Positions 3,717 through 56,197 of a DNA stretch of 64,000 nucleotides are shown one piece after another. Made by a program: the position numbers and the translations under genes. The notes under the pieces are model-generated. The model was not told the DNA's origin and ran no database searches. It worked only from the letters and a program-made list of their open reading frames with translations. The DNA comes from a virus (Duplodnaviria > Caudoviricetes). Location of the stretch: the IMG/VR virus record IMGVR_UViG_3300032177_000010, positions 1,135 to 65,134 of that record. One strand, given 5' to 3'. Position 1 is the stretch's first letter. Each line of letters starts with the position of its first letter.

Positions 3717-4808
3717 CTACGCCTGTAATTTAAATCCAAATTCCGCATTAGTATTTATGTCGTCTACTGTCCAAGGTAATCCAGTCGCAGGATTAATAGT
3801 CTCTATAAATGTGTAATTATTAAAGCTATTTGTTAAATTAACGTCACTTGCTGACCGTTCATAATCTATAGAGTTCTGTCTTTGCACAAGTCTTAGAGTT
3901 CTTGTTCCTGCATCAAGCTTTGCAGCCCTAACTCCATGCATAAGGCCATAGACTGCTATTGCATTAGTAGGTAAGTTAGTGTATTGATAAGTATCTATTG
4001 CGCCAATAGTTGCTGTTCTTACTAAATCTACATCCGAGGCTCCACCGGCCTCATCAATTAGGGGCCAATGCGCTGATCCAGCCGATGGCAGCCATCCTTG
4101 ATTATAGCCATCTGCATTAGGATAAAGATCAAGAACCCTAACATCCCCTAGATATGGATTAGTAAAGCCTCCTATTTGATCCCCTGTATTATCTAAGATA
4201 TAAAGATCATCGTAAGTTATACCCGGATTATAATCAGTATCCGAATAATTTAATATAAATAACTTAGCATAATTATTTGCGGTATTTACAGCATTCAATC
4301 CAGTAGTCATACTAAGAGCAACTACTCCATTTACTCTTAATTCTACATACGCAGAGTTACTAATAGATACCTTTCCATCTATCCAGTACCATTGGTTAGG
4401 AGATAAGGGCTGGCTTGTGGCCGTTGCTAAAATTGCCGCTGCCGTAGTGTTACAGTTATTAAGAGTTTTGCGGGCATATTGTAAATATCCTGTACTACTA
4501 ATGCAAATACCAGCTTGTGGTCCGGGGGCAGCATCAACGTTAGTATCGCAGAATGATAATAGCCACCAAGTTCTGGTTGAGTTCCAACCCCCTAATTTAA
4601 CCGCAAATCCGAACATAAATTCACTAATACTAGGTAAATTTGGTATATATGCATATGAGCTACCGTTATCCTGATTGGGAAAATATGCCCCTTGTCCACT
4701 TCCACTTACTCTAGAGTAGCCTGATGACCATGTTACATTTCCAGTATAGGGGCCATACATATTTCCAGAATCAAACCCATCAGCCCACCATATATCTCCT
4801 GCTGCCAT
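3717..4808 (-). CDS. Minor tail protein (DGFD N-terminus, ConA-like, C-terminal 'PxxD..W..IDE' domain)
   Basis: 363 aa, downstream of distal tail gene; resembles the N-terminal domain of 36989..41884. Confidence 0.65.
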   Translation of the reverse strand: MAAGDIWWADGFDSGNMYGPYTGNVTWSSGYSRVSGSGQGAYFPNQDNGSSYAYIPNLPSISEFMFGFAVKLGGWNSTRTWWLLSFCDTNVDAAPGPQAGICISSTGYLQYARKTLNNCNTTAAAILATATSQPLSPNQWYWIDGKVSISNSAYVELRVNGVVALSMTTGLNAVNTANNYAKLFILNYSDTDYNPGITYDDLYILDNTGDQIGGFTNPYLGDVRVLDLYPNADGYNQGWLPSAGSAHWPLIDEAGGASDVDLVRTATIGAIDTYQYTNLPTNAIAVYGLMHGVRAAKLDAGTRTLRLVQRQNSIDYERSASDVNLTNSFNNYTFIETINPATGLPWTVDDINTNAEFGFKLQA

Positions 4809-4820
4809 TTATATCGCCCC

Positions 4821-5579
4821 CTATATATACCAGCGGTCATAATAAGATATATCTACACTACCGCCTGTTACTGTAAAAGTTGTTTCTCCTGCGCCCGCGT
4901 ACATACGGTAGTCAGTATTCATTGAAGCATTCATATTAGTTACTCCTTCGATAGCGGTAAATGCCTCTGTATCTATTACAAGCCCACTTGCTGCTCCTGA
5001 TATCGTAATGGTTCCAGTAGGCTCTCCATTAGCTGTTACTCCTGTAATTGTCATGCCTGTTCCTGTAGCCGTTATAATAGTTGGAGTCCATGCACCATTA
5101 GCTAACGTCCTACCTGTAGTAGAAACAGTACCGCTGCCAGAGAATGTATGTAAGGTTTCTCCTACTAGCCACGGTTTACACTCAAACTCTACATTATAGT
5201 CCAAGGTTCTAATCGAAGATGGTACAGACTTGTTAGTGGAGATTGATTTAGCTAATGCTACATAATGTCTGTCCGTATATTGTACGTACAAATTTGTAAA
5301 TACTCTTGAACTTCTAATCATTGTTGCGGCCAATTCTATCTGGTCTTTACAGGTGAGGTAATCCTGCTCCCAAACTTTAAGCGTCAGAGATAGTACCTTG
5401 TTAGCTAGTCCAACATCTTCAGAGTTGGAGCCATCAATATACGCGCCATAGTGCTGAGCTATATTAAGGATTGAATCCATAGTTTCACTCTGTACATAAC
5501 CGGGCAATTGATAGCCGTTTTCAAAGTTTGTGCCGTTATAACTAGCTAAGTATTGCTGCGGTGGTCCTAGTGGGGACAT
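4821..5579 (-). CDS. Distal tail protein (Dit-like)
   Basis: 252 aa directly after tape measure; 'F-x-C-x-P-W' motif and C-terminal 'YYDRW'. Confidence 0.7.
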   Translation of the reverse strand: MSPLGPPQQYLASYNGTNFENGYQLPGYVQSETMDSILNIAQHYGAYIDGSNSEDVGLANKVLSLTLKVWEQDYLTCKDQIELAATMIRSSRVFTNLYVQYTDRHYVALAKSISTNKSVPSSIRTLDYNVEFECKPWLVGETLHTFSGSGTVSTTGRTLANGAWTPTIITATGTGMTITGVTANGEPTGTITISGAASGLVIDTEAFTAIEGVTNMNASMNTDYRMYAGAGETTFTVTGGSVDISYYDRWYI

Positions 5580-34700: not shown

Positions 34701-36989
34701 TACTGGGGTAGGTACTGCACTTTGATTCTCTGCACGATTATCACTAGTATCGATATCCCAAGTATCCGGCTCTAATCCTGATGTTTCCCAAGCCTTAACC
34801 TTTATGTAGGTTGGACTAGATCCTTGTACATTAACTCTTAGCCTTATTTCAGTATCGAGAGTCCAAATACCTGATTTATCTATATTACCTGTACCTACAT
34901 CCATGTGAGAAGCAGAAGTATTACTATACCATAAACTTATCTTCTGCCTTGGTGTTCCAAAGTCATCGTGATTTCTAGCCACTGCTGCATAATAGATAGC
35001 TGGATTACTTCCAAGTATCCTAAGTATAACTCCTGAGCGCTCTGATCCGGCTTTTATAGTAAGATATATATCCCCATCCGAAAAGTTGGTAGAAGGAAGA
35101 TAGTAATATGCATTATCTTGGTTAATAGTTTTAACTGTGTCTGTAGATCGATCTATATTAACGGAATATTCATCATGATGTATAGACCACGTTCCGCCAA
35201 TCTCTGCTGTATGTGTATTTAGATTAACAAGTCCTGTACCAGATTCAGTAAAGGAATCCTGTGCAACTACTGTTGCCCCGCCACCAAATGGATAGGTTTG
35301 TTTTATCCAAACAGAGGCTTGAGCATATGCTAGAGGATAGATTTCAATCCAAGTCTGTACCTGTGCAGTAACCATACTAATTTGTAGGGTTGCTGTCATC
35401 GCTTGACCATAAGATAGGTACGTAGCATTGATATGCGCCTGAGATTGGGCATAAGAAGTTATACCAGTTACTTTAATCCAAGCATTACCTTGTGCATAGA
35501 CTTGTTCTGTTCTCTTTATATGGGTATTACCTTGCGCCCATGCTTGATAGGCTTGCTTAATTGTTGTTTGAGTTTGACCATAAATTAATTCTGTGTGTTT
35601 AATCCAAGACTGTGCTTGAGCATAATCTTGTTCTGTTCTTACGATGGCTGCTTGACCCTGAGCATAGACACTATAGGTTGTAACAGGTGGTGCTATTTCT
35701 ACCTGTGCTTGTCCAAACTCTCTTTCTGTAGTTTTAATACCTACTTCCGCTTGCGCCCAAACTTGGTTATCAGTATGCTTAATATGGGTTTGTGCCTGAG
35801 CAAAAACTTTATCAAAACTATGGCTTACTACAGAGAAAGCAACTAATCCATTATCTTCTACTCTACCTGTTGTTCCTGCTACTTGTCTCCAATCCCAGTT
35901 AATAGCCCTTGCTGCGCCCGAGTCTAATTGGTGCAACTTGAATATTGAGAACGCTGTCTCATCTGTTATATCCCATTGATCTATACTTGGGGCGGTAGAA
36001 GCAAAGGCAGGATCGCTTACTAGTCCCCCACCATCAGGATTAACTTGAAGTCTAGCTTCCCAGTCTGTTGTTATTTCGTTAACATCTTGGTTAGAGAATG
36101 CAAGATAAACCCAATCACCAGTAACGGCAGGAGTTGGGGAAACAGTTGCAACATTTGTATAGGTTGGTGTAGTTGCCGGATCGATTTCACCAGCAGCGAA
36201 TACATAAGAAACTTGGGTAAATAGTTTAGTAAGATTAAGTGCCAACGTTCTAGCAGAGAACATAGTAGCGTCAGCAGTCGTTGCCTGTGCTGGACGTACA
36301 GCAATTGTTCTAGCTGCGTTTGTAGGTACGCCTACCCAATACTGGTTAGCACCTAATTGATCGGCAGTATCCTCGCCCTCTTGTGAAGTTCTATTTAATA
36401 CTCCTGCTACTGAGTCGTATAGTTCAAAGCTGATCTGAGTTGTAAGCGTTGTATTAACACCATGAATCAAGTTGGAAGCGTATAGCCAAACGTCTGTGCC
36501 ATTTGGAGTGAACGATGCAGAGGTTGCTTTAGCAGTTGGTGTTGTTGTGTAGGTATAATCAACGGTATCTTGAGTCCAGATATAATCTGTGCCACTAGTC
36601 CAATCGGTTATATCAATTGCAATAATCTGAGATAATCTGTTGGTAATCGTTGACCCAGTAGTATTACTACTGATCTGAATCTTAACTAGGTCAGGAGTAG
36701 CCGGTTGAGCATAGGTATACATCCACGATACTTCGTGTTCCTGTGTAGTCAGCGTACCTTCATACTGTAATGTAGCGTCGGTAAATGCTGTAGGAGTTGT
36801 ACCGTAAACTAACCTTGCCCGTGTATAGTTAGTAGAGTTATCGTGAATAGATACTTGATTAGCAAGAATAAGATAGGTTCTGCCCCCGGTGAAACTTCCG
36901 GCAGCAATAGTTGCAAGGTCTACCCATGCTGTAGTAGCAGCAGTTGTTCCAGCAACGGTTTCATTGTATAGGACTTGTATATCAGCCAT
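31800..36989 (-). CDS. Giant fibre-like virion protein with 14-15 aa YAQAQ repeats and inserted globular domains
   Basis: ORF 31800..37013; likely start MADIQV at 36989 (TAATG overlap with upstream stop). Confidence 0.75.
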   Translation of the reverse strand: MADIQVLYNETVAGTTAATTAWVDLATIAAGSFTGGRTYLILANQVSIHDNSTNYTRARLVYGTTPTAFTDATLQYEGTLTTQEHEVSWMYTYAQPATPDLVKIQISSNTTGSTITNRLSQIIAIDITDWTSGTDYIWTQDTVDYTYTTTPTAKATSASFTPNGTDVWLYASNLIHGVNTTLTTQISFELYDSVAGVLNRTSQEGEDTADQLGANQYWVGVPTNAARTIAVRPAQATTADATMFSARTLALNLTKLFTQVSYVFAAGEIDPATTPTYTNVATVSPTPAVTGDWVYLAFSNQDVNEITTDWEARLQVNPDGGGLVSDPAFASTAPSIDQWDITDETAFSIFKLHQLDSGAARAINWDWRQVAGTTGRVEDNGLVAFSVVSHSFDKVFAQAQTHIKHTDNQVWAQAEVGIKTTEREFGQAQVEIAPPVTTYSVYAQGQAAIVRTEQDYAQAQSWIKHTELIYGQTQTTIKQAYQAWAQGNTHIKRTEQVYAQGNAWIKVTGITSYAQSQAHINATYLSYGQAMTATLQISMVTAQVQTWIEIYPLAYAQASVWIKQTYPFGGGATVVAQDSFTESGTGLVNLNTHTAEIGGTWSIHHDEYSVNIDRSTDTVKTINQDNAYYYLPSTNFSDGDIYLTIKAGSERSGVILRILGSNPAIYYAAVARNHDDFGTPRQKISLWYSNTSASHMDVGTGNIDKSGIWTLDTEIRLRVNVQGSSPTYIKVKAWETSGLEPDTWDIDTSDNRAENQSAVPTPVGIIFRTLGNDGEVDDFLAISGTAVQGPTFAQAQATIKTSSSQYAQAQVYIESLLKAGYAQALGQVGRIDNLYSYIDEVVADDNDYIVSPLVVAGSSMARVQLSSLIAPDWPIDHILRFRAARTAGSDNGAFTIHLYQDTTLIFEYNPDISTSFQTYIYELTSLQIAAITDYSALAIEFEAQNGKALVSWVEFQVPSGSGSKKVRQYAQAQAFIFVPIQTVRQYGQAQAQIRRTEQGYAQAQGKIILSGQQIFAQAQSQIKQTYQAYAQANTKIILSALKVYGQALAAIKTTYNAYAQANAYIKIVGINSYAQSQAQIKQTYLVYGQTQAKINAFGTQQYAQASVWIEGSFVPSGQAQAKINAFGTRQYGQAAAIIKTTYLVHAQSITRILNSYQAVSQAQVQIRQTYQVYAQAQARFIAFGVRVYGQASVWIAGSFVVFAQAQTRIYAFKVNAYAQGQAQIKQTYRVYATAQSQVKQSYLSVAQVQATIEQSYVVAAQAQANIKTTYLVWAQGNAYIILSGLQVYAQASAYIISGIKVYAQAQTQIKAVSNQYAQAATWIAGSSVVFAQAQAKINAFGIQTYGQAAVIVKTTQVVHAQAITRILTSYQAVAQAKTGIKSISAVSAQAQTIIRTTNQVYGLAMTATLQTSTVTAHATTSIKQVYIVSAQAQVKLNVYAIKQYAQATVWMAGSALQLAQAQTRILAYNVQSYAQVWAQIKITSTQIGQAQALIKVSTRVYGQAQAQVKQVYLPVAQAQTSIKTTYQVYAQSLAQILHSYLVSAQSIAQIYIVGQGFANALVLIKQTYNSYAQSQAQILGLYVNQQYATAQGWIKTTVSVYAQAEANIILSGLQQFAQAEVLITTAGNQVYAQATTIILATYSSQAQAEALILKSAGYGQAQVFTIFLHTLKTLIISDHSLGLVLSDRDSIEEIIDDTLIEPDITDDIIEFNLRVSDRGLLLVLSDRNY

Positions 36990-39900
36990 TAGTCTCTCAC
37001 CGTCCCGACCCAATTACCATCGTTGCTTATATCTGCTATTGGTCTAGCTATTTGTGGTATATAAATCCATACTTCTGCTTGTGAGTAACCTTGACCTATA
37101 GCTCTTATTGTTGCGCCCGCTTGTGCGTATGCTTCTATATCCCTGACAGCAATGTAAGATTGCGCCTGAGCATAGCCACGATATGACGCTAGGATTACTC
37201 CCTGCGCTTGTGCATAAACTAAGTAAGTAGTTTTAATCTGTGTTTGTGCTTGCGCGAATGTTACATTACCAGTAACTTTGACATAAGTATTTGCTTGTGC
37301 AAATACTTGATAGGTTGCTTTGATCTGCGTCTGTGTTTGGGCATAAACAGACAAACCGATCATAATAATACGAGCGTTTGCTTGGGCATAAACTACATAA
37401 GAAGTCTTAACCTGAGTCTGCGCTTGTCCGTATACCTGTAAAGCCGAAAGTATTATCTTGGATTGTGCTTGCGCATAAGCCTGATAAGTAGTTTTAATTT
37501 GTGCTTGAGATTGTCCGTATACCTGATAGGCAGACTTAATCTGCGCTTGGCTTTGGGCGCAAGAAAGATACGTTGACTTAATTTGCGTTTGGGCCTGTGC
37601 AAACGTTGCATATGATGCCTTAACCCAAACCTGTGATTGTCCATACGCTTTAACAGCAAACGCATTTAATTTCGCTTGTGATTGAGCAAATTGTGTAAAT
37701 GCTCCTTCCAGCCATACCATTGCTTGCGCATAGGTTTGAATATTAAATGCGTTTAGTTTAGCTTGTGCCTGACCGTATACTTGGTAAGTAGTTTTAATTC
37801 TAACTTGTGCTTGGCCGTATACTTGCAATCCTGATAAGCGTATATAAGCATTTGCTTGCGCCCAGCCTGTATAAGTTTGCTTGATCTGCGCTTGAGACTG
37901 AGCATATACTTGTAATCCAGTAGTCTTAATGTAGGTATTCGCTTGAGCATTGACTAGATAAGTAGTTTTGATTTGCGCCAAGGATTGAGCGTAAACCCTA
38001 TAGATTTGCTTTATCTGAGTCTGTGCTTGCCCATAAGATTGATAAGAAGTTTTAATCCATACTTGAGCCTGTGCATATTGTGAGAATGAGCCTTCTAACC
38101 AAACAGATGCTTGAGCATATTGTTGTATATTAAACGCATTAATCTTTGCTTGCGCTTGACCATATATTTGATAAGTCTGTATAATTTTACTTTGTGCCTG
38201 AGCGTATACAAGGGTAGTTACCTTGATAGTTACCTGAGATTGAGCATAACTTCGATATACTTGCTTAACCTGAGATTGTGCTTGAGCATAGCCATTAATA
38301 CCTACTATCTTAATATAGGAATTAGCTTGTCCATATATTCTATAGGTGGTCTTAATGTCTGCTTGCGCTTGTCCATATGCTTGAAGGTTAGATAGAACTA
38401 TCTTGGCGCTCGCTTGCGCCCAAACTTGGTAAGATTGCTCTACCCATGTTTGCGCTTGCCCATAGCCTTGATAAATAGATTTAATTCTTGCTAGTGCCTG
38501 AGCGTAGACTATAATACCAGAAAGGATTATCTTGACATTAGTTTGCCCGTATGCCTGATACGTCTGTTTAATATTTGCTAGCGCCTGTGCATAGCCCCTA
38601 TATGTTTGCTCGATCCAAGTAGCTACCTGTGCGTAGCCTTGATATGATTGTTCGACCCAAGTTTGTGCTTGAGCATATACTTGATATACAGCCTTAACTC
38701 GTCCTTGGGCTTGAGCATAAGCAAGAAGTCCTGATAGAATAATCTTCGATTGTGCCTGTGCATATACCTGATATGCAGTCTTTATTTGAACTTGTGCCTG
38801 TCCATATACCCGTAGATTTGATAGTATTATCTTAGCAGTTGCTTGGGCATAAGCTAGATAAATCTGCTCTATCTGTGCTTGGCTCTGCGCATAGACTCTA
38901 TATGTAGTCTTGATCTGGCCCTGCGTTTGGGCATAAGAAAGCGTTGTTGCTTTAACCTGAGTTTGGGCTTGCGCGTATACTCTTACAGTTACTATGATAG
39001 GTATAGATACTTGTGTCTGAGCCTGAGCGAATGTTGGACCTTGGACTCCACTACCAATTTCGGTAACTAGATAATCGTCAGCACTATAGTCTGCCGATGT
39101 GTCTAGACGACCCCAAATACCAAAGGCTCCTGCCGCTATCTGATTTCCTGCTGTGTTATCTGTAGTATTGATAGCCCATGTTTCCGGCTCCGCGCCAGAT
39201 TGATCCCAATACCTAACCTTAAGAGAGGTCGAACTAACCCCGCTAACAGATATGCGAACTCGTGTATCTGTTCCAGCAAGGGGATCAATATTATAAGACG
39301 CGAGAACAGTAAGTACCCCAGCCGTCCTTCGATATAAAGTGGAGTCCACTTCGGCGCGGTAGCCAAAATCTAAACAATAAAAGTTATTTCCGCCTGTACC
39401 TCTAAGCCAAAGACCACCGTACCCGTTAGCAGTTATGTCCCATGTCAAGAGATGATCGGTATCTCCGTCCGTCCCCGTACCTACCCTGTAGTAAGAGCGT
39501 CCAGCACCGGAAGCACTATTTCTTAGATGACCACTCAGACTTCTAAGAACTGTTCCCGATGAATCGTTATAATAGACAGAATAATTACCACCAATATCTG
39601 CCGGATTACCATTAAGATTGGCGTAGTCGGGCGAGAAATCGTCCTGTGCTAAGATTGCGCCCCCGCCCCCAAACGGATAAGTTTGCTTTATTTGTGCTAG
39701 GGATTGTCCATAGGCTGTTATACCAATTGCCTTTATGTAGGCATTACTCTGCGCCCAAACTTGATTTGTTAGTCTAATATGAGCCAAAGATTGTGCATAA
39801 GATTGTTTAGTAGTAATAATCTTAGCCTGCGCTTGGGCATAACTTCGATACGTTGTCTTTATCTGGCTTTGTGCTTGTGCCGAAGGGGTACTATACCATT

Positions 39901-41884
39901 TTGATAATAGAAGATTATCAAGAGTAGCAATAAGAGTTGCAGTACCCGAGGTAAACAGGAAGCTAGCATGGCCGGGGACATAAGCTATGCTATTTATCCT
40001 AGTTACACTAGCATTATATTTAGTATTAGGAGTAGATAAATTCCAAACAGTTACGTTAGAAACTATATCATTTCCACTACGACTTACATAAGACTCGTAA
40101 GCCCAAGTTTGTCCTGCACTATAGGTTGCCCCTAAACTAGCTGTTGTATTAAAGGTTCTATGATAGGAACGTATACTTAAATTTCCATTTTCATCTATTA
40201 TTAATCCGGTTCCTTCTTGGGACCAGCCAGAAGATATGGCGCCAATATAAGATGATCCTCTACCAGACTGAAGCGCTATATAGAGGCTATCCGCCGCATT
40301 AGGTAGGACATTTAAACTGAACTCGTAATATATCTTCCACTGTTGAGGAAGTACTAAATTACCTAGAGATATTCTTTCTCCATAGTTAGCGACTTGCGCG
40401 CTAGACCCGTTTGTAGAGAAAACTCCTACGGCTGAATCACTCATAGTCCAGCCGCCAGCATTATCGGATGTTCCCCAACCATCTGCTACCGTTCTAGTAA
40501 AACTATCATATACAGAACTATATTGGGGGGTAGAATATATTAATGCTGCTGCTAGTCCATATGATTGAACATTAATCGCTTTTATCTTAGTATTAGATTG
40601 TGCATAAGACTTATATGTAGTAACAGCACCAGCAGCTATAGTTGCTTGTGCTTGAGCATAAGACTTATTTGCTAGGACTTTTATTTGGGCCAAAGATTGT
40701 CCGTATGCTTGAACAGCAATTCCTTTTATCTTAGCATTTGATTGGGCATAACCACTATTAGTTCTTGCAGGAGTCCACGCGACGTAGATCCCCATGAAGC
40801 AGACGGACGCCACGCGGGATGCTGTCTCGGGGCGCGTCACGCGCATATACGGCTGATAGTCGTATGCCCCAGCGGGGACAGGAGAGGCGATCGCATCACG
40901 CCGCTCGTTCCAGTAGTCCGTCCCGGTCGAGTAGGTGCCGAGCGCGCCGCTGCCGTGCCCGGTGGACACGTCGATGCTTAACTCGCCCACCGTGAGGGCC
41001 TCGGTGCTGTAATACGACCCGTAGGACAGAAGCTTCGCCCCGGTGGCGCTGTCCTCGCCCCACACGACGACGGATCGGGCCGCAATGGTGGTATCCGCCT
41101 CGTTGATGCCCGCATCCGCCCATGTGGTCATGTAGGCTTCGTACTTGTCGGTCGCGCCACCCGCGCCGCCCGCGTGCTCGATCTGCGTCGTGTCGCTCTC
41201 GGTGGCCGACCCTACCGGCGGGCAGTTGTTGACCGCGTCGTACAGGTTCGTCGTACCGCCGCTACCGCCGGTCCAGAGGGTGTCCCGGTACTTGTCGCTG
41301 ATCGGCAGGAGCAGGGCTACTTTGGAGGGGGCGAGGGAGGTGGTGAACTCAGCGATGATCACATCGTCGATGTAGATATCCATGGCGGATGACTCTGTGC
41401 CAGAAGCACCGAGTAACACGGTCCCCGCACTTTGCCCTTGCAGACCCACCGCTCCATTTGCCGTGGCAACGCCGTCCACCTCGATGACGTTGTCATAATA
41501 GATTGGGGCGCCCCCGAGAATGAACGACACCCAATACCACTGGCCGGTGTTTAGAGCGGCACTTGTTGTCGCTGCCAGCGTGGTCCGATCGTAAATCTGT
41601 AGCGTGCCGGTCGATGTCAGTCGAAGGTTGTTCGCGGCCACACTCCCACCGATAATCCGAGTCAAAGAGGGGAGCGTGGCTATATACAACCCGAAACCGG
41701 CCCAGTACGGCGCACTGGGTACGGAGAACGAGAAATATCCGCTCGCAGCCGACGCCGGATTGCAGCGGATCGAGCGCGTGCCTGTCCGGGCCTGAGTCGT
41801 GGAATACGCAGCCGTACCCGTCAGCGTGATGTTGTCTACCTTCTCGGCGGCAGACTCAAATCCAGTTAAGAATATTACAGCCAT
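36989..41884 (-). CDS. Giant fibre-like virion protein (1631 aa) with high-GC N-terminal domain, YAQAQ repeats and two inserted domains
   Basis: ORF track; long repeat shaft; N-terminal 'TGFE' ConA-like domain. Confidence 0.75.
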   Translation of the reverse strand: MAVIFLTGFESAAEKVDNITLTGTAAYSTTQARTGTRSIRCNPASAASGYFSFSVPSAPYWAGFGLYIATLPSLTRIIGGSVAANNLRLTSTGTLQIYDRTTLAATTSAALNTGQWYWVSFILGGAPIYYDNVIEVDGVATANGAVGLQGQSAGTVLLGASGTESSAMDIYIDDVIIAEFTTSLAPSKVALLLPISDKYRDTLWTGGSGGTTNLYDAVNNCPPVGSATESDTTQIEHAGGAGGATDKYEAYMTTWADAGINEADTTIAARSVVVWGEDSATGAKLLSYGSYYSTEALTVGELSIDVSTGHGSGALGTYSTGTDYWNERRDAIASPVPAGAYDYQPYMRVTRPETASRVASVCFMGIYVAWTPARTNSGYAQSNAKIKGIAVQAYGQSLAQIKVLANKSYAQAQATIAAGAVTTYKSYAQSNTKIKAINVQSYGLAAALIYSTPQYSSVYDSFTRTVADGWGTSDNAGGWTMSDSAVGVFSTNGSSAQVANYGERISLGNLVLPQQWKIYYEFSLNVLPNAADSLYIALQSGRGSSYIGAISSGWSQEGTGLIIDENGNLSIRSYHRTFNTTASLGATYSAGQTWAYESYVSRSGNDIVSNVTVWNLSTPNTKYNASVTRINSIAYVPGHASFLFTSGTATLIATLDNLLLSKWYSTPSAQAQSQIKTTYRSYAQAQAKIITTKQSYAQSLAHIRLTNQVWAQSNAYIKAIGITAYGQSLAQIKQTYPFGGGGAILAQDDFSPDYANLNGNPADIGGNYSVYYNDSSGTVLRSLSGHLRNSASGAGRSYYRVGTGTDGDTDHLLTWDITANGYGGLWLRGTGGNNFYCLDFGYRAEVDSTLYRRTAGVLTVLASYNIDPLAGTDTRVRISVSGVSSTSLKVRYWDQSGAEPETWAINTTDNTAGNQIAAGAFGIWGRLDTSADYSADDYLVTEIGSGVQGPTFAQAQTQVSIPIIVTVRVYAQAQTQVKATTLSYAQTQGQIKTTYRVYAQSQAQIEQIYLAYAQATAKIILSNLRVYGQAQVQIKTAYQVYAQAQSKIILSGLLAYAQAQGRVKAVYQVYAQAQTWVEQSYQGYAQVATWIEQTYRGYAQALANIKQTYQAYGQTNVKIILSGIIVYAQALARIKSIYQGYGQAQTWVEQSYQVWAQASAKIVLSNLQAYGQAQADIKTTYRIYGQANSYIKIVGINGYAQAQSQVKQVYRSYAQSQVTIKVTTLVYAQAQSKIIQTYQIYGQAQAKINAFNIQQYAQASVWLEGSFSQYAQAQVWIKTSYQSYGQAQTQIKQIYRVYAQSLAQIKTTYLVNAQANTYIKTTGLQVYAQSQAQIKQTYTGWAQANAYIRLSGLQVYGQAQVRIKTTYQVYGQAQAKLNAFNIQTYAQAMVWLEGAFTQFAQSQAKLNAFAVKAYGQSQVWVKASYATFAQAQTQIKSTYLSCAQSQAQIKSAYQVYGQSQAQIKTTYQAYAQAQSKIILSALQVYGQAQTQVKTSYVVYAQANARIIMIGLSVYAQTQTQIKATYQVFAQANTYVKVTGNVTFAQAQTQIKTTYLVYAQAQGVILASYRGYAQAQSYIAVRDIEAYAQAGATIRAIGQGYSQAEVWIYIPQIARPIADISNDGNWVGTVRD

Positions 41885-50585: not shown

Positions 50586-50614
50586 AAAATAAAAAGGAAC
50601 GGGCAACGGCCCGT
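50586..50614 (-). terminator. Probable terminator after the RNA array
   Basis: ACGGGC-CGTT-GCCCGT then TCCTTTTTATTTT. Confidence 0.55.
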
Positions 50615-50781: not shown

Positions 50782-50786
50782 AAGTA

Positions 50787-50905
50787 ATAAGGAGAATTAA
50801 TCAACCTCAGACGAATTTGCAGGTTTTCCCGCCCTGCTGCCCCGAAGGGTTAGTGGAAGTAAGATTTTTCAAGAATCGAAGTATCTGAAGTCTGCACTAC
50901 CTTAT
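50787..50905 (-). ncRNA. Y-RNA-like element 1 (multi-hairpin payload)
   Basis: P1 AUAAGG/CCUUAU, UAGUG, P2 ACUUCAGA/UCUGAGGU, UACUUC, UUCU. Confidence 0.8.
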
Positions 50906-50922
50906 CCAAGTATTAAATTATA

Positions 50923-51057
50923 TTAGGGAGAATTTAGGCGTATCAGTCTTTATATATAACTTCACCCTAACAAGTAAGGTGATAGGATTCGAACCTATAA
51001 TCTCAAAAGTATTAATTCTGTGTTTTACCGAAGTAACTGATACTGTCACTACCCTAA
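50923..51057 (-). ncRNA. Y-RNA-like element 2 (T-arm plus capped acceptor stem; YrlA-like)
   Basis: P1 UUAGGG/CCCUAA, P2 GUAUCAGU/ACUGAUAC; payload AUAGG-UUCGAAU-CCUAU then CACCUUA-loop-UAGGGUG. Confidence 0.85.
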
Positions 51058-51073
51058 CAAAACGTTAGGTTTT

Positions 51074-51149
51074 TGGTAGCCCTACGGCGAATCGAACGCC
51101 GATTGGCAGAGTGAAAATCTGCTGTCCTAAACCGTTAGACGATAGGGCC
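51074..51149 (-). tRNA. tRNA-Glu (TTC)
   Basis: Loop TT-TTC-AC, T-arm, CCA. Confidence 0.9.
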
Positions 51150-51154
51150 AAATT

Positions 51155-51295
51155 ATTAGGAGAAAAGATCGCATAGACCCTCTGTACTGGTGCTTTAACA
51201 TTAAGCTACTCTCAACTGATTAGAGAAGAGAGGGAGGAATTGAACCTCCGATATCCCGTTCCCAAGCGAAGTATGTCTATACTGCACTACCTAAT
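51155..51295 (-). ncRNA. Y-RNA-like element 3 (full circularly permuted tRNA module; YrlA-like)
   Basis: P1 AUUAGG/CCUAAU, P2 GUAUAGAC/GUCUAUGC; T-arm GGAGG-UUCAAUU-CCUCC, stem CUCUC/GAGAG, D-arm UA-GCUU-AAUGUUA-AAGC. Confidence 0.88.
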
Positions 51296-51310
51296 ATTAA
51301 TGTACTTATT

Positions 51311-51394
51311 TTCTAGGAGAATTGGGCGTGTAGGCTCAAAAATGTAATTGTTTGGAATTATTTTAGAAGAAATCCTACACTACACTACCTAGAA
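51311..51394 (-). ncRNA. Y-RNA-like element 4 (AU-rich unstructured payload)
   Basis: P1 UUCUAGG/CCUAGAA, UAGUG, P2 GUGUAGG/CCUACAC, UUCUUC. Confidence 0.8.
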
Positions 51395-51408
51395 TATTTA
51401 GTTTTAAA

Positions 51409-51483
51409 TTAATCGGAGAATTAGGCGAATCCGGTGCTTGTTTCTGAATCTTAGAAGTAACCGAATCCTTCACTACCGATTAA
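51409..51483 (-). ncRNA. Y-RNA-like element 5 (minimal, 18-nt payload)
   Basis: P1 UUAAUCGG/CCGAUUAA, P2 GGAUUCGGU/ACCGGAUUC, UACUUC; begins 3 nt after the Ro60 stop. Confidence 0.8.
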
Positions 51484-51486
51484 AAT

Positions 51487-53067
51487 TTACCACTTACTGA
51501 TTTGTGCGGCCATATTAGCGCCCTCAACGAGAGCCATATAGTCAATAATTTTATCCGACCATCCGTTAAGCAGAACGGTATTCTTACTAGTAGAAGGTGT
51601 TTGACGTGTACCGTATGCAGACAAGTCTAGGGAGTATAGATATACATTTCTATTTATCTTGGCCCGATATTCTTTTAACTCCGTATTTACGAAGGAGTCA
51701 GTGTACCAAGAGAATGTTGAACCGTAATAATCCTTCTGACTTCCTGCTCCCCTTCCTGTAGTATCGTAGCATTGCATATCAGAGATAAGCACGATACGAT
51801 CTACCTTGATCTTACTATCAAGTAGTAACTTAAATGCTAGGCCAGCATTCGTAGAGTGCCCAACATCTGTACGGACAATCTTCTCAATGTTGTTGATCAT
51901 CGTGTCATCAGGGTTTAATTTAATAACTTGTGCTGTCTGTCCAAACCCAATAACGATGGAATTAGCAGCCTTCTTAGTTGCAATCGCTCCTAGAACAGCC
52001 GCAACCTCTGCATTTGTCATCTTAGACTTAGCCGACACATTTGCGCCCGTCATGGACCCCGAAAGGTCCACTAGAACTGCTGTAGTACCGTCTAGGACTA
52101 CGTTAGAGATTGACTTCTCAAATGCTTGAGCAATTGCTCTATTAATCTTTTGATTGTCTACTTCCTTATAAGCAGAGAAGAATCGATACGGTAACTGCTT
52201 GGAATTCTTGATTAGCCGCTCATCGGTAATCTTGGCAAGAACGGGATCAAGATCGACCCCGGACTTGTCAAAGTTACGCAAGTTGCGTAGCAATGCCATG
52301 TAGCCCATCTTTGGAAAGATGGCATTCCATGTTTCCTTGCTGGAACCAAACTTGGAAATAATATTTTCCCAAGTTGCGCCCGATTTCTCAAGCAATTCCA
52401 GATCAAGAGTATCCTTTGCAAGCAACTGCTTTAGTGCTGCAATCTTTGGCAAGGCTTCCTCATCAACAATATCATTGATAAGGTAATTTCGCATTGCCTT
52501 GGAAACTGGATAGCCCTCTCTACGATAGATAAGATGTAGAACATCTCCTAGGGAGACGCCCTTCTTATCAGAGTCATACTTATTTAATTGGTATTCATCG
52601 AATGCCGCGAAAGCAGCAGCCAGTCCCTTCTTCAAAGAGTTAGGAATAGGCTTCCCGTGCGCAGACAACTGGTACGCAATAACGTCAGCCAATTCGTCGG
52701 CACGCTTAACGATCTTAGGAGTATACTCCCTCACGAAAGGCTTGCACGCTTCGATATTTGCGGCTTCCACAAGTAGAACCTGTGGAGTCGTTCTTAGATA
52801 GATTTCGTTTCTAGCGTATGCCGCTAGCTGTAGGACAAACTTAGGGTCGCTCTTTGCGACTTCCTTAATGTCCTTAACGATTTCATTGGCGATCTTGTCA
52901 CCACTCTTATAGAACGTATTCTCGCTCCAAAATGCACCAAGAACACGCTCAATTAAACGATCCTTTGCTGGCAGCTTCCACGCTACCGCAGCCTCTTCAT
53001 TAAGAGTCATGTTTTCAGGATCAAGAGTTTCCAAACTTGTAACTGTCTTTGTATTTAACTTAACCAT
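51487..53067 (-). CDS. rsr: Ro60/Rsr TROVE-domain RNA-binding protein
   Basis: 'YARNEIYLR', 'RADE', 'FDEYQLNKY', 'TWE', 'MGYMALLRNLRN', 'SKQLPYRFFSAY', vWA MIDAS 'DLSGSM...T...SD'. Confidence 0.95.
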   Translation of the reverse strand: MVKLNTKTVTSLETLDPENMTLNEEAAVAWKLPAKDRLIERVLGAFWSENTFYKSGDKIANEIVKDIKEVAKSDPKFVLQLAAYARNEIYLRTTPQVLLVEAANIEACKPFVREYTPKIVKRADELADVIAYQLSAHGKPIPNSLKKGLAAAFAAFDEYQLNKYDSDKKGVSLGDVLHLIYRREGYPVSKAMRNYLINDIVDEEALPKIAALKQLLAKDTLDLELLEKSGATWENIISKFGSSKETWNAIFPKMGYMALLRNLRNFDKSGVDLDPVLAKITDERLIKNSKQLPYRFFSAYKEVDNQKINRAIAQAFEKSISNVVLDGTTAVLVDLSGSMTGANVSAKSKMTNAEVAAVLGAIATKKAANSIVIGFGQTAQVIKLNPDDTMINNIEKIVRTDVGHSTNAGLAFKLLLDSKIKVDRIVLISDMQCYDTTGRGAGSQKDYYGSTFSWYTDSFVNTELKEYRAKINRNVYLYSLDLSAYGTRQTPSTSKNTVLLNGWSDKIIDYMALVEGANMAAQISKW

Positions 53068-53765: not shown

Positions 53766-53848
53766 TGGCGGAAGGTGCGGGGGTCGAACCCGCAACAGAT
53801 TTCTGCGCCTGTTTAGCAAACAAGTTCCTCACCATTCGGATACCTTCC
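53766..53848 (-). tRNA. tRNA-Ser (GCT)
   Basis: Loop TT-GCT-AA, long variable arm, G73, CCA. Confidence 0.9.
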
Positions 53849-55010
53849 GTGTCATACTTTTAACAATATCGTAAGCATTTTCTATACCCTGCTTACGTAA
53901 ATATACTTGAAGCGTCTCAGCATAAATTGTCCAATCTTTCTCTAGCGCATTTTGCATGGTATTAGCATCGGGGTTAGTGCGAGACATACCTGTTATGGTA
54001 CTATTATAAGAAACTAAACAATATCCTAGTAATGTGCCTATATTACGCATAATTGTACTATTTGATAAATCTCTTTGTAATCTAGATATATAAAGTTTAT
54101 CTATCATTGTTTGTGCTAGTCCGTTAGCCAGCGTTAGGTTGCCTTCGGCATTCTCAAAATCAATTGGATTAACCTTCTGAGGCATTGTGCTTGAGCCAAC
54201 CTCAAATTCAACATCCTTTAATTTAACCCAGCCATCGCTAATATAGCGCCACATATCTTGTACAAAATCTAATAGAATACCGTTTATCCTCTGTAAATTC
54301 TGGAACAGTATAACTATATCTTCAAAGGGATTGATCTGCGTGGTCACTAAATTTGGAGTCAAGTTAAATGACAGTACTAATTCTCGTGATAGCCTATCCC
54401 AATCAACATCAGGATAAGCAAATTTTAATGCGTAGAAATTGCCTACCGACCCATTAAACTTTCCAGTTAAAGATGCTACGGAGTGCGCAAGGTTTACTAT
54501 CTCTTTGTATAGTCTTATCTTAAATACACGCATTTCGTGCTCCCATGTTGTAGGAGCCGCTGGCTGTCCATGAGTACGAGCAAGCATTGGTATATTAGAT
54601 AAATCAAAAGTATCATTTATTTCATAAAGTTTAGGTACAATAACCTTCGTTACTGCATCTGTAAGTATTAATCGGTAAGCGATATTATTAATATCTTCCG
54701 ATGTAATTCCTAAATGAACGAACTCACGCACATCGTTTGGTACTAGTTGACGGAGATATAGTTCAACCGCCTTTACATCATGGCGAGTAATTTTCTCTAT
54801 CTCTTTTATCTTGATTGCTTCTTCCATAGAAAAATTTTCTAATATGCTATCAAGGTATTTAACGGGAGCTATAATTTTATACTCTATTAGAGATTTAAGG
54901 TATTTAATCTCTATCTCTAATCTCTTCTTTATAAGAGCATATTCACTGACGTATGGGGCTAACTCAGTTAAATCGTATCTTCCATCTAGGGGAGTTATAG
55001 CATTGAGCAC
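53829..55010 (-). CDS. purB: Adenylosuccinate lyase (short C-terminus)
   Basis: 'PLDGRY', 'HDVKAVE', 'ARTHGQPA', 'GSSTMPQKVNPIDFENAEGN', 'SRLQRDL'. Confidence 0.93.
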   Translation of the reverse strand: MLNAITPLDGRYDLTELAPYVSEYALIKKRLEIEIKYLKSLIEYKIIAPVKYLDSILENFSMEEAIKIKEIEKITRHDVKAVELYLRQLVPNDVREFVHLGITSEDINNIAYRLILTDAVTKVIVPKLYEINDTFDLSNIPMLARTHGQPAAPTTWEHEMRVFKIRLYKEIVNLAHSVASLTGKFNGSVGNFYALKFAYPDVDWDRLSRELVLSFNLTPNLVTTQINPFEDIVILFQNLQRINGILLDFVQDMWRYISDGWVKLKDVEFEVGSSTMPQKVNPIDFENAEGNLTLANGLAQTMIDKLYISRLQRDLSNSTIMRNIGTLLGYCLVSYNSTITGMSRTNPDANTMQNALEKDWTIYAETLQVYLRKQGIENAYDIVKSMTRKVSEW

Positions 55011-56197
55011 ATTTCATTCCTTTTCTCTCCGGTAGAGACAAGATCAATTGGTACACCAACTTGCTGTTCAACTTCTTCTAAGTATTTTATAGCGTTATTC
55101 GGCAGATTCTTATAGCTAGTTACTCCTCTACTATTCTTCCAACCCTGTAGTACTTTATAAACAGGTTTACCCTCATCATAATGAGTACAGAGAGCAATTT
55201 CAGGAATTCCATCAAGTACATCAAGTTTTGTTATTATTAGACTAGTAAAGCCATTTAGTTTAGCTGCAAATCTAACCATCTCTGCATCAAACCAGCCAAC
55301 CCTTCTTCGTCGCCCCGTAGTCGTTCCAAACTCCTTACCGTTATTAACCAATAATTCATCGATAGGAGAATTAGCGATAACCTCAGTAGGAAATGGTCCT
55401 GCCCCTACTCTTGTAGTATACGCCTTTGCAACTCCAATTATACTAGTAATAGAAAGTGGAGAAATACCCGCGCCCGCAGTTATTGAGCCTGATACAACAC
55501 TAGAAGCTGTTACATAAGGATAGGTTCCCCAATCATTATCCAAGAATACCCCATGTGCTCCTTCGGCTAAAATACGTTTATTTCCTTCTATATATTGATA
55601 TATCAAATCAAAGCTATCGTAAATATATGGTTTAATTTGATTAAAGAGGTTATAATAAGTTTCCTCAATCTCGGATTGCTTAATGCTTAGGTCTTTAATT
55701 CTAAGTTGTATCTCTAGTTTTTGATTAAACTGTTTTCTATCAAACAGGTCGCCTAGTCTGATTCCGTTATAGCTTACCTTATCAGCATAGGCAGGGCCGA
55801 TACCCCTTCCGGTTGTGCCTATCTTACTCTCCCCCCTTGCTTCTTCGTATACCTTATCAAGTATCTTATGATAAGGCATAACTAAATGACAACGGGGCGA
55901 GATAAGAAGCCTATTCTCAATATCTATGCCAGATTCTTTAAGAAGATTAATCTCATTAATAAGACACTCTAGATCAAGAACTACCCCATTTGCTATAACA
56001 GCAATAACTTTAGGATTAAAGATACCTGATGGTATAAGATGCATGGGAAATTTGCCGTACTGATTAATTACAGTATGGCCAGCATTATTTCCCCCGTGGT
56101 ATCTAATTACCATGTCAGAAAATTCTGCTAAGTAATCAATAACCTTTCCTTTTCCCTCGTCCCCCCATTGAGAGCCGATTACCATATCAACAGACAT
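54995..56197 (-). CDS. purA: Adenylosuccinate synthetase
   Basis: 'QWGDEGKGK', 'GGNNAGHT', 'GTYPYVT', 'EFGTTTGRRRRVGWFD', 'TKLD'. Confidence 0.95.
   Translation of the reverse strand: MSVDMVIGSQWGDEGKGKVIDYLAEFSDMVIRYHGGNNAGHTVINQYGKFPMHLIPSGIFNPKVIAVIANGVVLDLECLINEINLLKESGIDIENRLLISPRCHLVMPYHKILDKVYEEARGESKIGTTGRGIGPAYADKVSYNGIRLGDLFDRKQFNQKLEIQLRIKDLSIKQSEIEETYYNLFNQIKPYIYDSFDLIYQYIEGNKRILAEGAHGVFLDNDWGTYPYVTASSVVSGSITAGAGISPLSITSIIGVAKAYTTRVGAGPFPTEVIANSPIDELLVNNGKEFGTTTGRRRRVGWFDAEMVRFAAKLNGFTSLIITKLDVLDGIPEIALCTHYDEGKPVYKVLQGWKNSRGVTSYKNLPNNAIKYLEEVEQQVGVPIDLVSTGEKRNEMCSML

Follow-up and report, generated by a model that had tools for sequence, protein, structure and literature searches.

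Of the two components of the Ro60 particle, the Y RNAs are understood least, and only a handful of bacterial ones have been studied at the bench. That one Ro60-binding handle may carry several different modules has been published for both animals and bacteria (Chen 2014, PMC4201824); that paper gives two Y RNAs per characterised species, elsewhere worded as at least two with more expected, together with five small RNAs upstream of rsr in Deinococcus radiodurans. A single YrlA is entered for each phage in its Table S2 (22 rows), and mycobacteriophages are among the carriers of canonical YrlA. A published passage on Mycobacterium smegmatis has YrlA and YrlB processed out of a single precursor, and an account of the phage phiLo reports that its Ro60 binds two phage Yrl RNAs and the host PNPase, with a ternary complex shown in vitro (PMC12135203). 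Here we describe five small RNA elements that follow the gene for a Ro60 homologue in a tailed phage (Caudoviricetes; IMG/VR record IMGVR_UViG_3300032177_000010). The DNA that we analysed, referred to as the window, is a stretch of 64,000 nucleotides (nt) at positions 1,135 to 65,134 of that record; the 65-kb contig bearing it is estimated to hold about half of the phage genome. With a probability of roughly three in four, we take the five elements to be genes for Y RNAs, small RNAs that partner the phage Ro60 encoded beside them.

The elements (E1 to E5; Table 1) lie 4-700 nt downstream of an open reading frame (ORF) with TROVE and vWA domains, on the minus strand like the Ro60 gene itself, and all have one layout: a stem P1 of 7 base pairs (bp), UAGUG-NN, a second stem P2 of 8 bp, (U/A)U(A/U)CUUC, a payload, P2', N6-UUCU and P1'. 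The pattern TAGTG-N9-13-T[AT]CTTC has five matches in the window, which lie between 50899 and 51475 and are without exception on the minus strand, and a scan of the whole source record gave five on the reverse strand, none on the forward strand and none for the backwards control. A covariance model (R1) trained on six copies with short payloads, of which the window supplied two and relatives four, finds copies outside its training set beside Ro60 in every related contig. A second model (R2), run unfiltered over both strands of the window, recovers precisely these five at 52.6-71.6 bits (E 1e-12 to 1e-17), including E3 and E5 though neither was in its training set, and nothing beyond them at E<=0.1. 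The preliminary description of this DNA had proposed five minus-strand elements of one layout behind the TROVE/vWA gene and had called for a covariance model and a covariation test; both motif and model recover these five and no others in the window, with limits at most 1 nt from the low ends first proposed.

The pairing of the two stems was assessed in an alignment of 26 model hits. P1 and P2 differ in sequence from copy to copy yet stay paired: 95.1% of stem cells can pair, compared to 54.5% in shuffled alignments (none of 500 shuffles is as high), all 15 stem pairs show changes on both sides, and pairing drops to 36-46% when the 3' partners are shifted by 1-3 columns. Minimum-free-energy folds also recover P1 and P2 in each copy. 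The comparison of G-U with A-C pairs used 33 elements, leaving out L005_5598, L005_5783, L006_6024 and one duplicate in L007; over the five copies in the window, the 75 stem cells comprise 66 Watson-Crick pairs, seven G-U, no A-C and two others, so that the RNA strand is that of the Ro60 gene. The strong covariation and the strand, both of which had been claimed at the outset, are thus confirmed. Covariation of this kind, as opposed to repeat identity, argues against the view that the elements are decayed tRNA genes or a proliferating repeat with no link to Ro60. The region is certainly a tRNA cluster, several payloads have T arms, and the 7-bp P1 with the UAG after it looks like an acceptor stem and tRNA positions 8-10, but the scaffold occurs only beside TROVE genes in the whole phage records searched, and no such element is found near the other 25 of the window's 28 tRNA genes, every one of which is on the minus strand. 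We consider this origin hardly credible.

The payloads are as first described, with one addition. E1 and E2 are hairpins with single-stranded loops of 26 and 37 nt respectively, counting the UACUUC. The payload of E3 is a permuted tRNA-like domain (core 51256-51189) consisting of a T arm (51249-51233), a capped acceptor-like hairpin and a D arm. E4 contains a UACUUCGGUA mini-hairpin, an anticodon-arm-like hairpin that was absent from the preliminary description, a T arm whose last position is 50982 and a capped hairpin (50982-50962), and no convincing D arm was found in it; E5 holds several hairpins. None of the window's payloads is a complete embedded tRNA.

Table 1. Features of the Ro60 locus in the window, and two further RNA classes located in related phages (positions prefixed L refer to the loci of relatives).
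Feature	Position	Strand	Remarks
Ro60 homologue gene, 526 aa	51487..53067	minus	TROVE + vWA domain, MIDAS motif intact
E1, Y RNA (putative), 19-nt unstructured payload	51410..51482	minus	R2 71.6 bits, E 1.7e-17
E1, P1	51482-51476 / 51416-51410	minus	
E1, UAGUG	51475-51471	minus	
E1, P2	51468-51461 / 51434-51427	minus	
E1, UUACUUC	51460-51454	minus	
E2, Y RNA (putative), 30-nt AU-rich payload	51311..51394	minus	R2 66.2 bits
E2, UAGUG	51387-51383	minus	
E2, P2	51380-51373 / 51335-51328	minus	
E2, UUUCUUC	51372-51366	minus	
E3, YrlA-type Y RNA (putative), 89-nt payload	51154..51296	minus	R2 54.4 bits; partial Rfam YrlA match
tRNA-Glu(UUC)	51074..51149	minus	4 nt 3' of E3; ARAGORN; Rfam tRNA 57.2 bits
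E4, Y RNA (putative), 83-nt payload	50922..51058	minus	R2 52.6 bits; partial Rfam tRNA match
E5, Y RNA (putative), 67-nt multi-hairpin payload, not tRNA-like	50786..50906	minus	R2 54.7 bits
tRNA-Asn(GUU)	50781-50706	minus	begins 4 nt past E5; ARAGORN, Rfam
tRNA-Gln(UUG)	50701-50626	minus	ARAGORN, Rfam
Terminator-like GC hairpin (50614-50599) + T tract	50589..50614	minus	consensus scan only
Y RNA class (putative) with 124-nt payload	L005:5973-6149, L006:6024-6197, L007:5833-6008		no Rfam match
GUCAUCGCUCA/CUACCGGAUGCGCGACGGCGCA RNA	L005:6300-6385, L006:6368-6535, L007:6295-6385, L007:6020-6145		no Rfam match; absent from window

The protein encoded next to the elements has the TROVE ring of HEAT repeats and the vWA domain with a MIDAS (metal-ion-dependent adhesion site) that characterise Ro60. 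In Pfam searches it matches TROVE (E 2e-35), DUF7788 (2.5e-8) and vWA_Ro60 (2.5e-6), with TROVE and vWA_Ro60 exceeding their cut-offs, and the MIDAS residues D334, S336, S338, T406 and D430 are invariant across nine homologues. The nearest solved structure is the Ro60 of phiLo, a Thermus phage (PDB IDs: 9kop/9l5y; E 4.8e-33), ahead of Deinococcus Rsr (PDB ID: 2nvo; E 3.4e-6).

Y RNAs are expected to be encoded on the strand of a TROVE gene and no more than a few kb away from it; all five copies are so placed, and the same holds in relatives. Among related viral contigs, ten encode a Ro60 at 41-78% identity and an eleventh one at 32%. All seven distinct relatives with 52-78% identity have 4-7 copies beside the gene (the counts including 6, 7, 6, 4, 4 and 5) and distant ones with 32-44% identity have 2-3, the arrays being always interleaved with true tRNA genes. 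To look further afield we chose 17 phages from the 111 in GenBank with a Ro60 homologue; all are below 33% identity and they were picked for diversity, not at random. At least two R2 copies adjoin Ro60 in 11 of them, with a range of 2-8: CcrColossus (8), Rhizobium phage TM39 (7), Atuin (6), Bacillus phage G (5), Kikimora (5), Tenjo (4), Alone3 (4), crAss001 (3 by model, 5 by eye), csAssE-Sib (3), Mvi-JY20 (2) and Rabbitrun (2). phiLo has a single weak hit, and there are none at the Ro60 loci of HGTV-1, SRB7757, pv27, Mx1 and Myrna. The searches of Ro60 loci gave 40 and 42 R2 hits, all 82 on the Ro60 strand, though the weakest (E 0.01-0.1) may be wrong.

Whole records were searched with R2 in three sets of five, covering 12 different phage records (crAss001 twice) and about 1.9 Mb. 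At E<=0.01 every match (10 of 10, 6 of 6 and 20 of 20) falls within about 4 kb of a TROVE gene; Alone3 gave no match in these searches at that threshold. The proposed tie between Y-like RNAs and the Ro60 gene therefore holds, since the scaffold is seen solely beside TROVE genes in the whole phage genomes searched. The accompanying expectation that a locus has one or a few Y RNAs, which would make arrays rare, is not borne out: with rows of 2-8 in 11 of the 17 sampled phages, the five-copy array is the typical case of a pattern under-described in print and not a rarity. A blastn search of the region against GenBank phages matched the tRNA genes only.

Several of these loci deserve mention on their own. 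In crAss001, a phage of Bacteroides intestinalis whose TROVE gene is expressed early, an unannotated gap of 900 nt past the TROVE gene gp96 (L028:4516-5235) holds at least five scaffold RNAs with a UAGUG handle. Three are found by R2, a fourth (about 4985-5090) has a T arm inside the 3' internal loop, and a fifth (4692-4836) is tRNA-like with the anticodon arm replaced by an insert of about 70 nt containing UACUUC. In phiLo the weak R2 match (L040:4685-4766; E 0.0099) contains GUACUUC, lies downstream of Ro60 and overlaps the coding sequence phiLo_25; the published pair Yrl1 and Yrl2 could here be joined by a third Y-like RNA. A scan of bacterial genomes returned two loci only. A 7.8-kb contig of a Flavobacteriaceae metagenome-assembled genome (L044) encodes a Ro60 60% identical to that of the window and three copies of the scaffold. 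This locus and the UAGUG handle that the window has in common with crAss001 hint at a Bacteroidota host for the window phage.

How the elements relate to published Y RNAs can be judged first from YrlA. R2 finds again the YrlA coordinates listed by Chen 2014 (Table S2) for CcrColossus (108824-108959) and phage G (405189-405352). The seed alignments in supplementary texts 1-2 of that paper have the order GNCGAA, 2-3 nt, P2, GUUAC, which the handle in the window (G-UAGUG, 2 nt, P2, UUACUUC) matches position for position with GUG for GCG. Together these two results lead us to regard the elements as Y RNAs. The end-pairing stem, conserved internal loop and variable distal module by which Y RNAs are recognised are all present, and, going by Chen 2014 (PMC4201824) and the Rfam family RF02553, the elements further resemble YrlA in adjoining Ro60 on the same strand, in the asymmetry of the internal loop, in the second helix and in a YUAY-type motif, as well as in the permuted T/capped-acceptor/D domain of E3. 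They differ in that the handle reads (U/C)AGUG-NA-G and not GNCGAAN0-1G, that UACUUC and UUCU are much more conserved, and that the tRNA-like domain is present in one of the five copies (two counting E4), E1, E2 and E5 having none.

E1 and E2 are better compared to the YrlB or Yrn2-type RNAs of Salmonella, M. smegmatis and D. radiodurans, which are likewise companion Y RNAs at the same locus; the two elements fit as YrlB-like, though their loops are the long ones given above and not a small pyrimidine-rich loop. Compared to D. radiodurans and the other characterised species, five RNAs here have one strict handle in common. phiLo is alike in that a phage Ro60 has phage-encoded Y-like RNAs adjoining its gene, but it has two, as reported (PMC12135203), with a CGAA motif and upstream of the gene, and R2 detects neither. 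Vertebrate Y RNAs, as presented in Chen 2014, similarly have one Ro60-binding stem on several RNAs whose differing loops are proposed to recruit different proteins; they are, however, separate RNA polymerase III genes with GGUCCGA in a bulged helix and no tRNA-like domain.

There are also points that weigh against calling the elements Y RNAs. The literal GNCGAAN0-1G is missing in all five copies, which have G-UAGUG-N-(A/C)-(G/A) instead, with only a G-Y-G-N-A-G skeleton in common. None reaches the gathering score of the Rfam YrlA model (RF02553, 69 bits); the best score, 24.1 bits, comes from the tRNA-like core of E3, aligned to positions 24-84 of 114. The comparison with Rfam suggested at the outset thus gave a partial alignment of the E3 core and no end-to-end match. 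At gathering thresholds Rfam finds only tRNAs in the window, and at E<=10 there is no credible match besides the partial YrlA in E3 and a partial tRNA in E4 (32.3 bits, model positions 9-63), with nothing at all for E5. Because the Rfam threshold is missed and the literal GNCGAA is absent, we class the elements as a Y RNA variant and not as members of RF02553. R2 in turn detects nothing in the mycobacteriophage Myrna and only the one weak match in phiLo, meaning that the experimentally validated handles differ from that of the window. The protein does not reach the NCBIfam Rsr equivalog NF041674 (40.4 bits against a cut-off of 900), which places it among distant Ro60 proteins and outside the Rsr orthologues. 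Finally, the R2 E-values are rough, with a shortened calibration, and fitting the covariation alignment to the model, as was done here, favours structure, though the margin over shuffles is still large.

The arrangement of the locus suggests how the RNAs might be made. Only 4 nt separate the Ro60 stop codon from E1, and the gaps that follow are 15 and 14 nt, then 4 nt between E3 and tRNA-Glu, 15 and 15 nt, and 4 nt between E5 and tRNA-Asn. In a consensus scan of the minus strand, the first GC-rich terminator-like hairpin 3' of the Ro60 stop comes after tRNA-Gln; there is no equally GC-rich stem with a T tract from the stop to 50614, and the remaining consensus matches in that stretch correspond to the T arm of E3 and the capped hairpin of E4. 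This hairpin is probably the end of a transcription unit of Ro60, Y RNAs and tRNAs. The short gaps (4-15 nt) and the position of the hairpin suggest that the Ro60 mRNA, the Y RNAs and the three tRNAs probably form one precursor, later cut by the tRNA-processing machinery. By cleaving tRNA-Glu and tRNA-Asn at their 5' ends, RNase P would leave E3 and E5 with short trailers of 4 nt, and by analogy we infer a parallel to the processing of YrlA and YrlB in M. smegmatis.

The same compactness would suit elements that act in cis, in a 3' untranslated region or operon, by setting the stability or autoregulation of the Ro60 mRNA or as RNase punctuation of the tRNA operon, with no stable RNAs acting in trans. 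E1 has no room for a promoter of its own, the spacers of 14-15 nt are regular, and a scan for promoter-like sequences gave no excess over shuffles (8 compared to a mean of 7.3). A 3' untranslated role cannot be general, however, as the arrays lie upstream of Ro60 in CcrColossus, phage G, Tenjo, Kikimora and Rhizobium phage TM39, and the conserved unpaired motifs and the payload classes common to distant phages (UACUUCGGUWA, in seven arrays) point to functions in trans. We therefore think cis action very unlikely.

If the elements are Y RNAs, as we favour, then Ro60 likely docks on the shared handle formed by P1, the asymmetric loop (with UAGUG-NN as its 5' strand and N6-UUCU as its 3' strand), P2 and UACUUC. 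Other phages have UGGCG, UGGUG, UUGCG, AAGCG or AUGCG at the UAGUG position, and within one phage the 5-mer is nearly constant (UGGCG in 8 of 8 CcrColossus copies, UUGCG in 6 of 6 of the Rhizobium phage, UAGUG in 5 of 5 of the window) while P1 and P2 differ, which suggests that each phage's own Ro60 reads the internal loop. Each RNA would then show other factors a different module. The single-stranded AU-rich loops of E1 and E2 may tether PNPase or another exonuclease, as in the RYPER complexes of Deinococcus and phiLo; E3 and E4 would offer tRNA-like domains, and E5 a module with no known relatives. Going by the Deinococcus tether model and the in vitro result with phiLo PNPase, the payloads would be adaptors. 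A toolkit of one protein and interchangeable adaptors, as first suggested, is plausible here, and is a concept inherited from the published model of Y RNAs and not a new one. The expression, processing and Ro60 binding of the five RNAs, and the partners of each payload, are what we infer from their sequences.

Payloads fall into classes that recur across phages. The UACUUCGGUWA class, to which E4 belongs, has one member in each array of seven lineages, CcrColossus, Kikimora and the Streptomyces phage Alone3 among them; phages with widely differing hosts have conserved cargo of the class UACUUCGGUA. A YrlA-type copy directly precedes tRNA-Glu in three arrays, that of the window among them, and in three further relatives a short-payload copy occupies this place. 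The most conserved payload by far is one of about 124 nt, which is 94-96% identical in three phages whose Ro60 is 57-58% identical to that of the window; it is the only clear sequence class when payloads are clustered with blastn-short, most other links being via T loops. T and D arms were called by crude regular expressions that gave several false D arms, and these calls were used only for the position of the T arm. A further conserved, structured-looking RNA, which begins GUCAUCGCUCA and ends CUACCGGAUGCGCGACGGCGCA, lies between Y RNA copies in three relatives.

In some relatives the payload is a complete cloverleaf in normal order, which ARAGORN identifies as tRNA-Lys(CUU), tRNA-Lys(UUU), tRNA-Tyr(GUA) or an RNA with a UCA anticodon. 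Such cargo raises the question of whether the enclosed RNA is a client and not an adaptor, the handle being a duplex of leader and trailer through which Ro60 is brought in to chaperone, protect or quality-control the tRNA-like RNA within. The constant interleaving of the arrays with true tRNA genes would agree with this, as would csAssE-Sib, where two annotated tRNA genes lie within R2 hits. What speaks against it is that E1, E2 and about ten related copies have payloads of just 17-40 nt, without a fold that would need protection, that the acceptor stems of the embedded cloverleaves are weak or AU-only, and that no window payload is a complete tRNA; we judge a client role to be quite unlikely. 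In csAssE-Sib (L035:2593-2870) the annotated tRNA-Tyr and tRNA-Lys inside the scaffold hits have AU-only or weak acceptor stems and are, by their sequences, probably Y RNA cargo and not functional tRNAs. More generally, some genes annotated as tRNAs beside phage Ro60 are probably cargo of this kind.

The proposal that the Y RNAs act against host defences that target tRNAs is speculative. Two observations are relevant to it: the cloverleaves with Lys- and Tyr-type anticodon loops in relatives, and a preprint in which phage Bas63 is reported to have a Ro60-like protein that counteracts the Ppl defence system and neighbouring "tRNA" genes are speculated to be Y RNAs. A fuller version, which we hold to be rather unlikely, is that each phage lineage has a private handle code (UAGUG, UGGCG, UUGCG, AAGCG and others) by which its Ro60 would be loaded with 3-8 adaptor RNAs, some being complete or partial tRNA mimics with anticodon-type loops on display that serve as decoys or tethers, the whole forming a counter-defence module in tRNA islands. 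Were this so, tRNA-mimic cargo would absorb host anticodon nucleases or RNA-directed defences, or bring an exonuclease onto them.

In the literature searched, which was covered in part and with Table S1 of Chen 2014 checked by the word "phage" only, we found no description of multi-copy phage arrays or of the UAGUG-type handle. In many phages, including the cultured and tractable crAss001, CcrColossus, Bacillus phage G and actinophages, rows of 2-8 Y RNAs can be recognised by a handle that the Rfam YrlA model misses. The function of phage Ro60 is thereby made testable, with a docking motif that can be mutated and defined classes of cargo for pull-down.

Some further observations concern the surroundings of these loci. 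Downstream of Ro60 in Alone3, between two tRNA-Lys genes, there is a near-threshold match to the manA RNA (L029:4967-5199; 47.8 compared to 55.2 bits). In the window, Pfam gives no match at E<=0.01 for a 1631-aa ORF (36989-41884, minus strand). The Ro60 cluster has purB-like and purA-like genes immediately upstream of it (53829-56197, minus strand). We considered whether the latter might be PurZ, a marker of a Z-base genome, and rejected this: the NCBIfam scores are above the cut-off for PurA (498 compared to 402 bits) and below that for PurZ (138 compared to 300), making it an auxiliary gene of purine metabolism.

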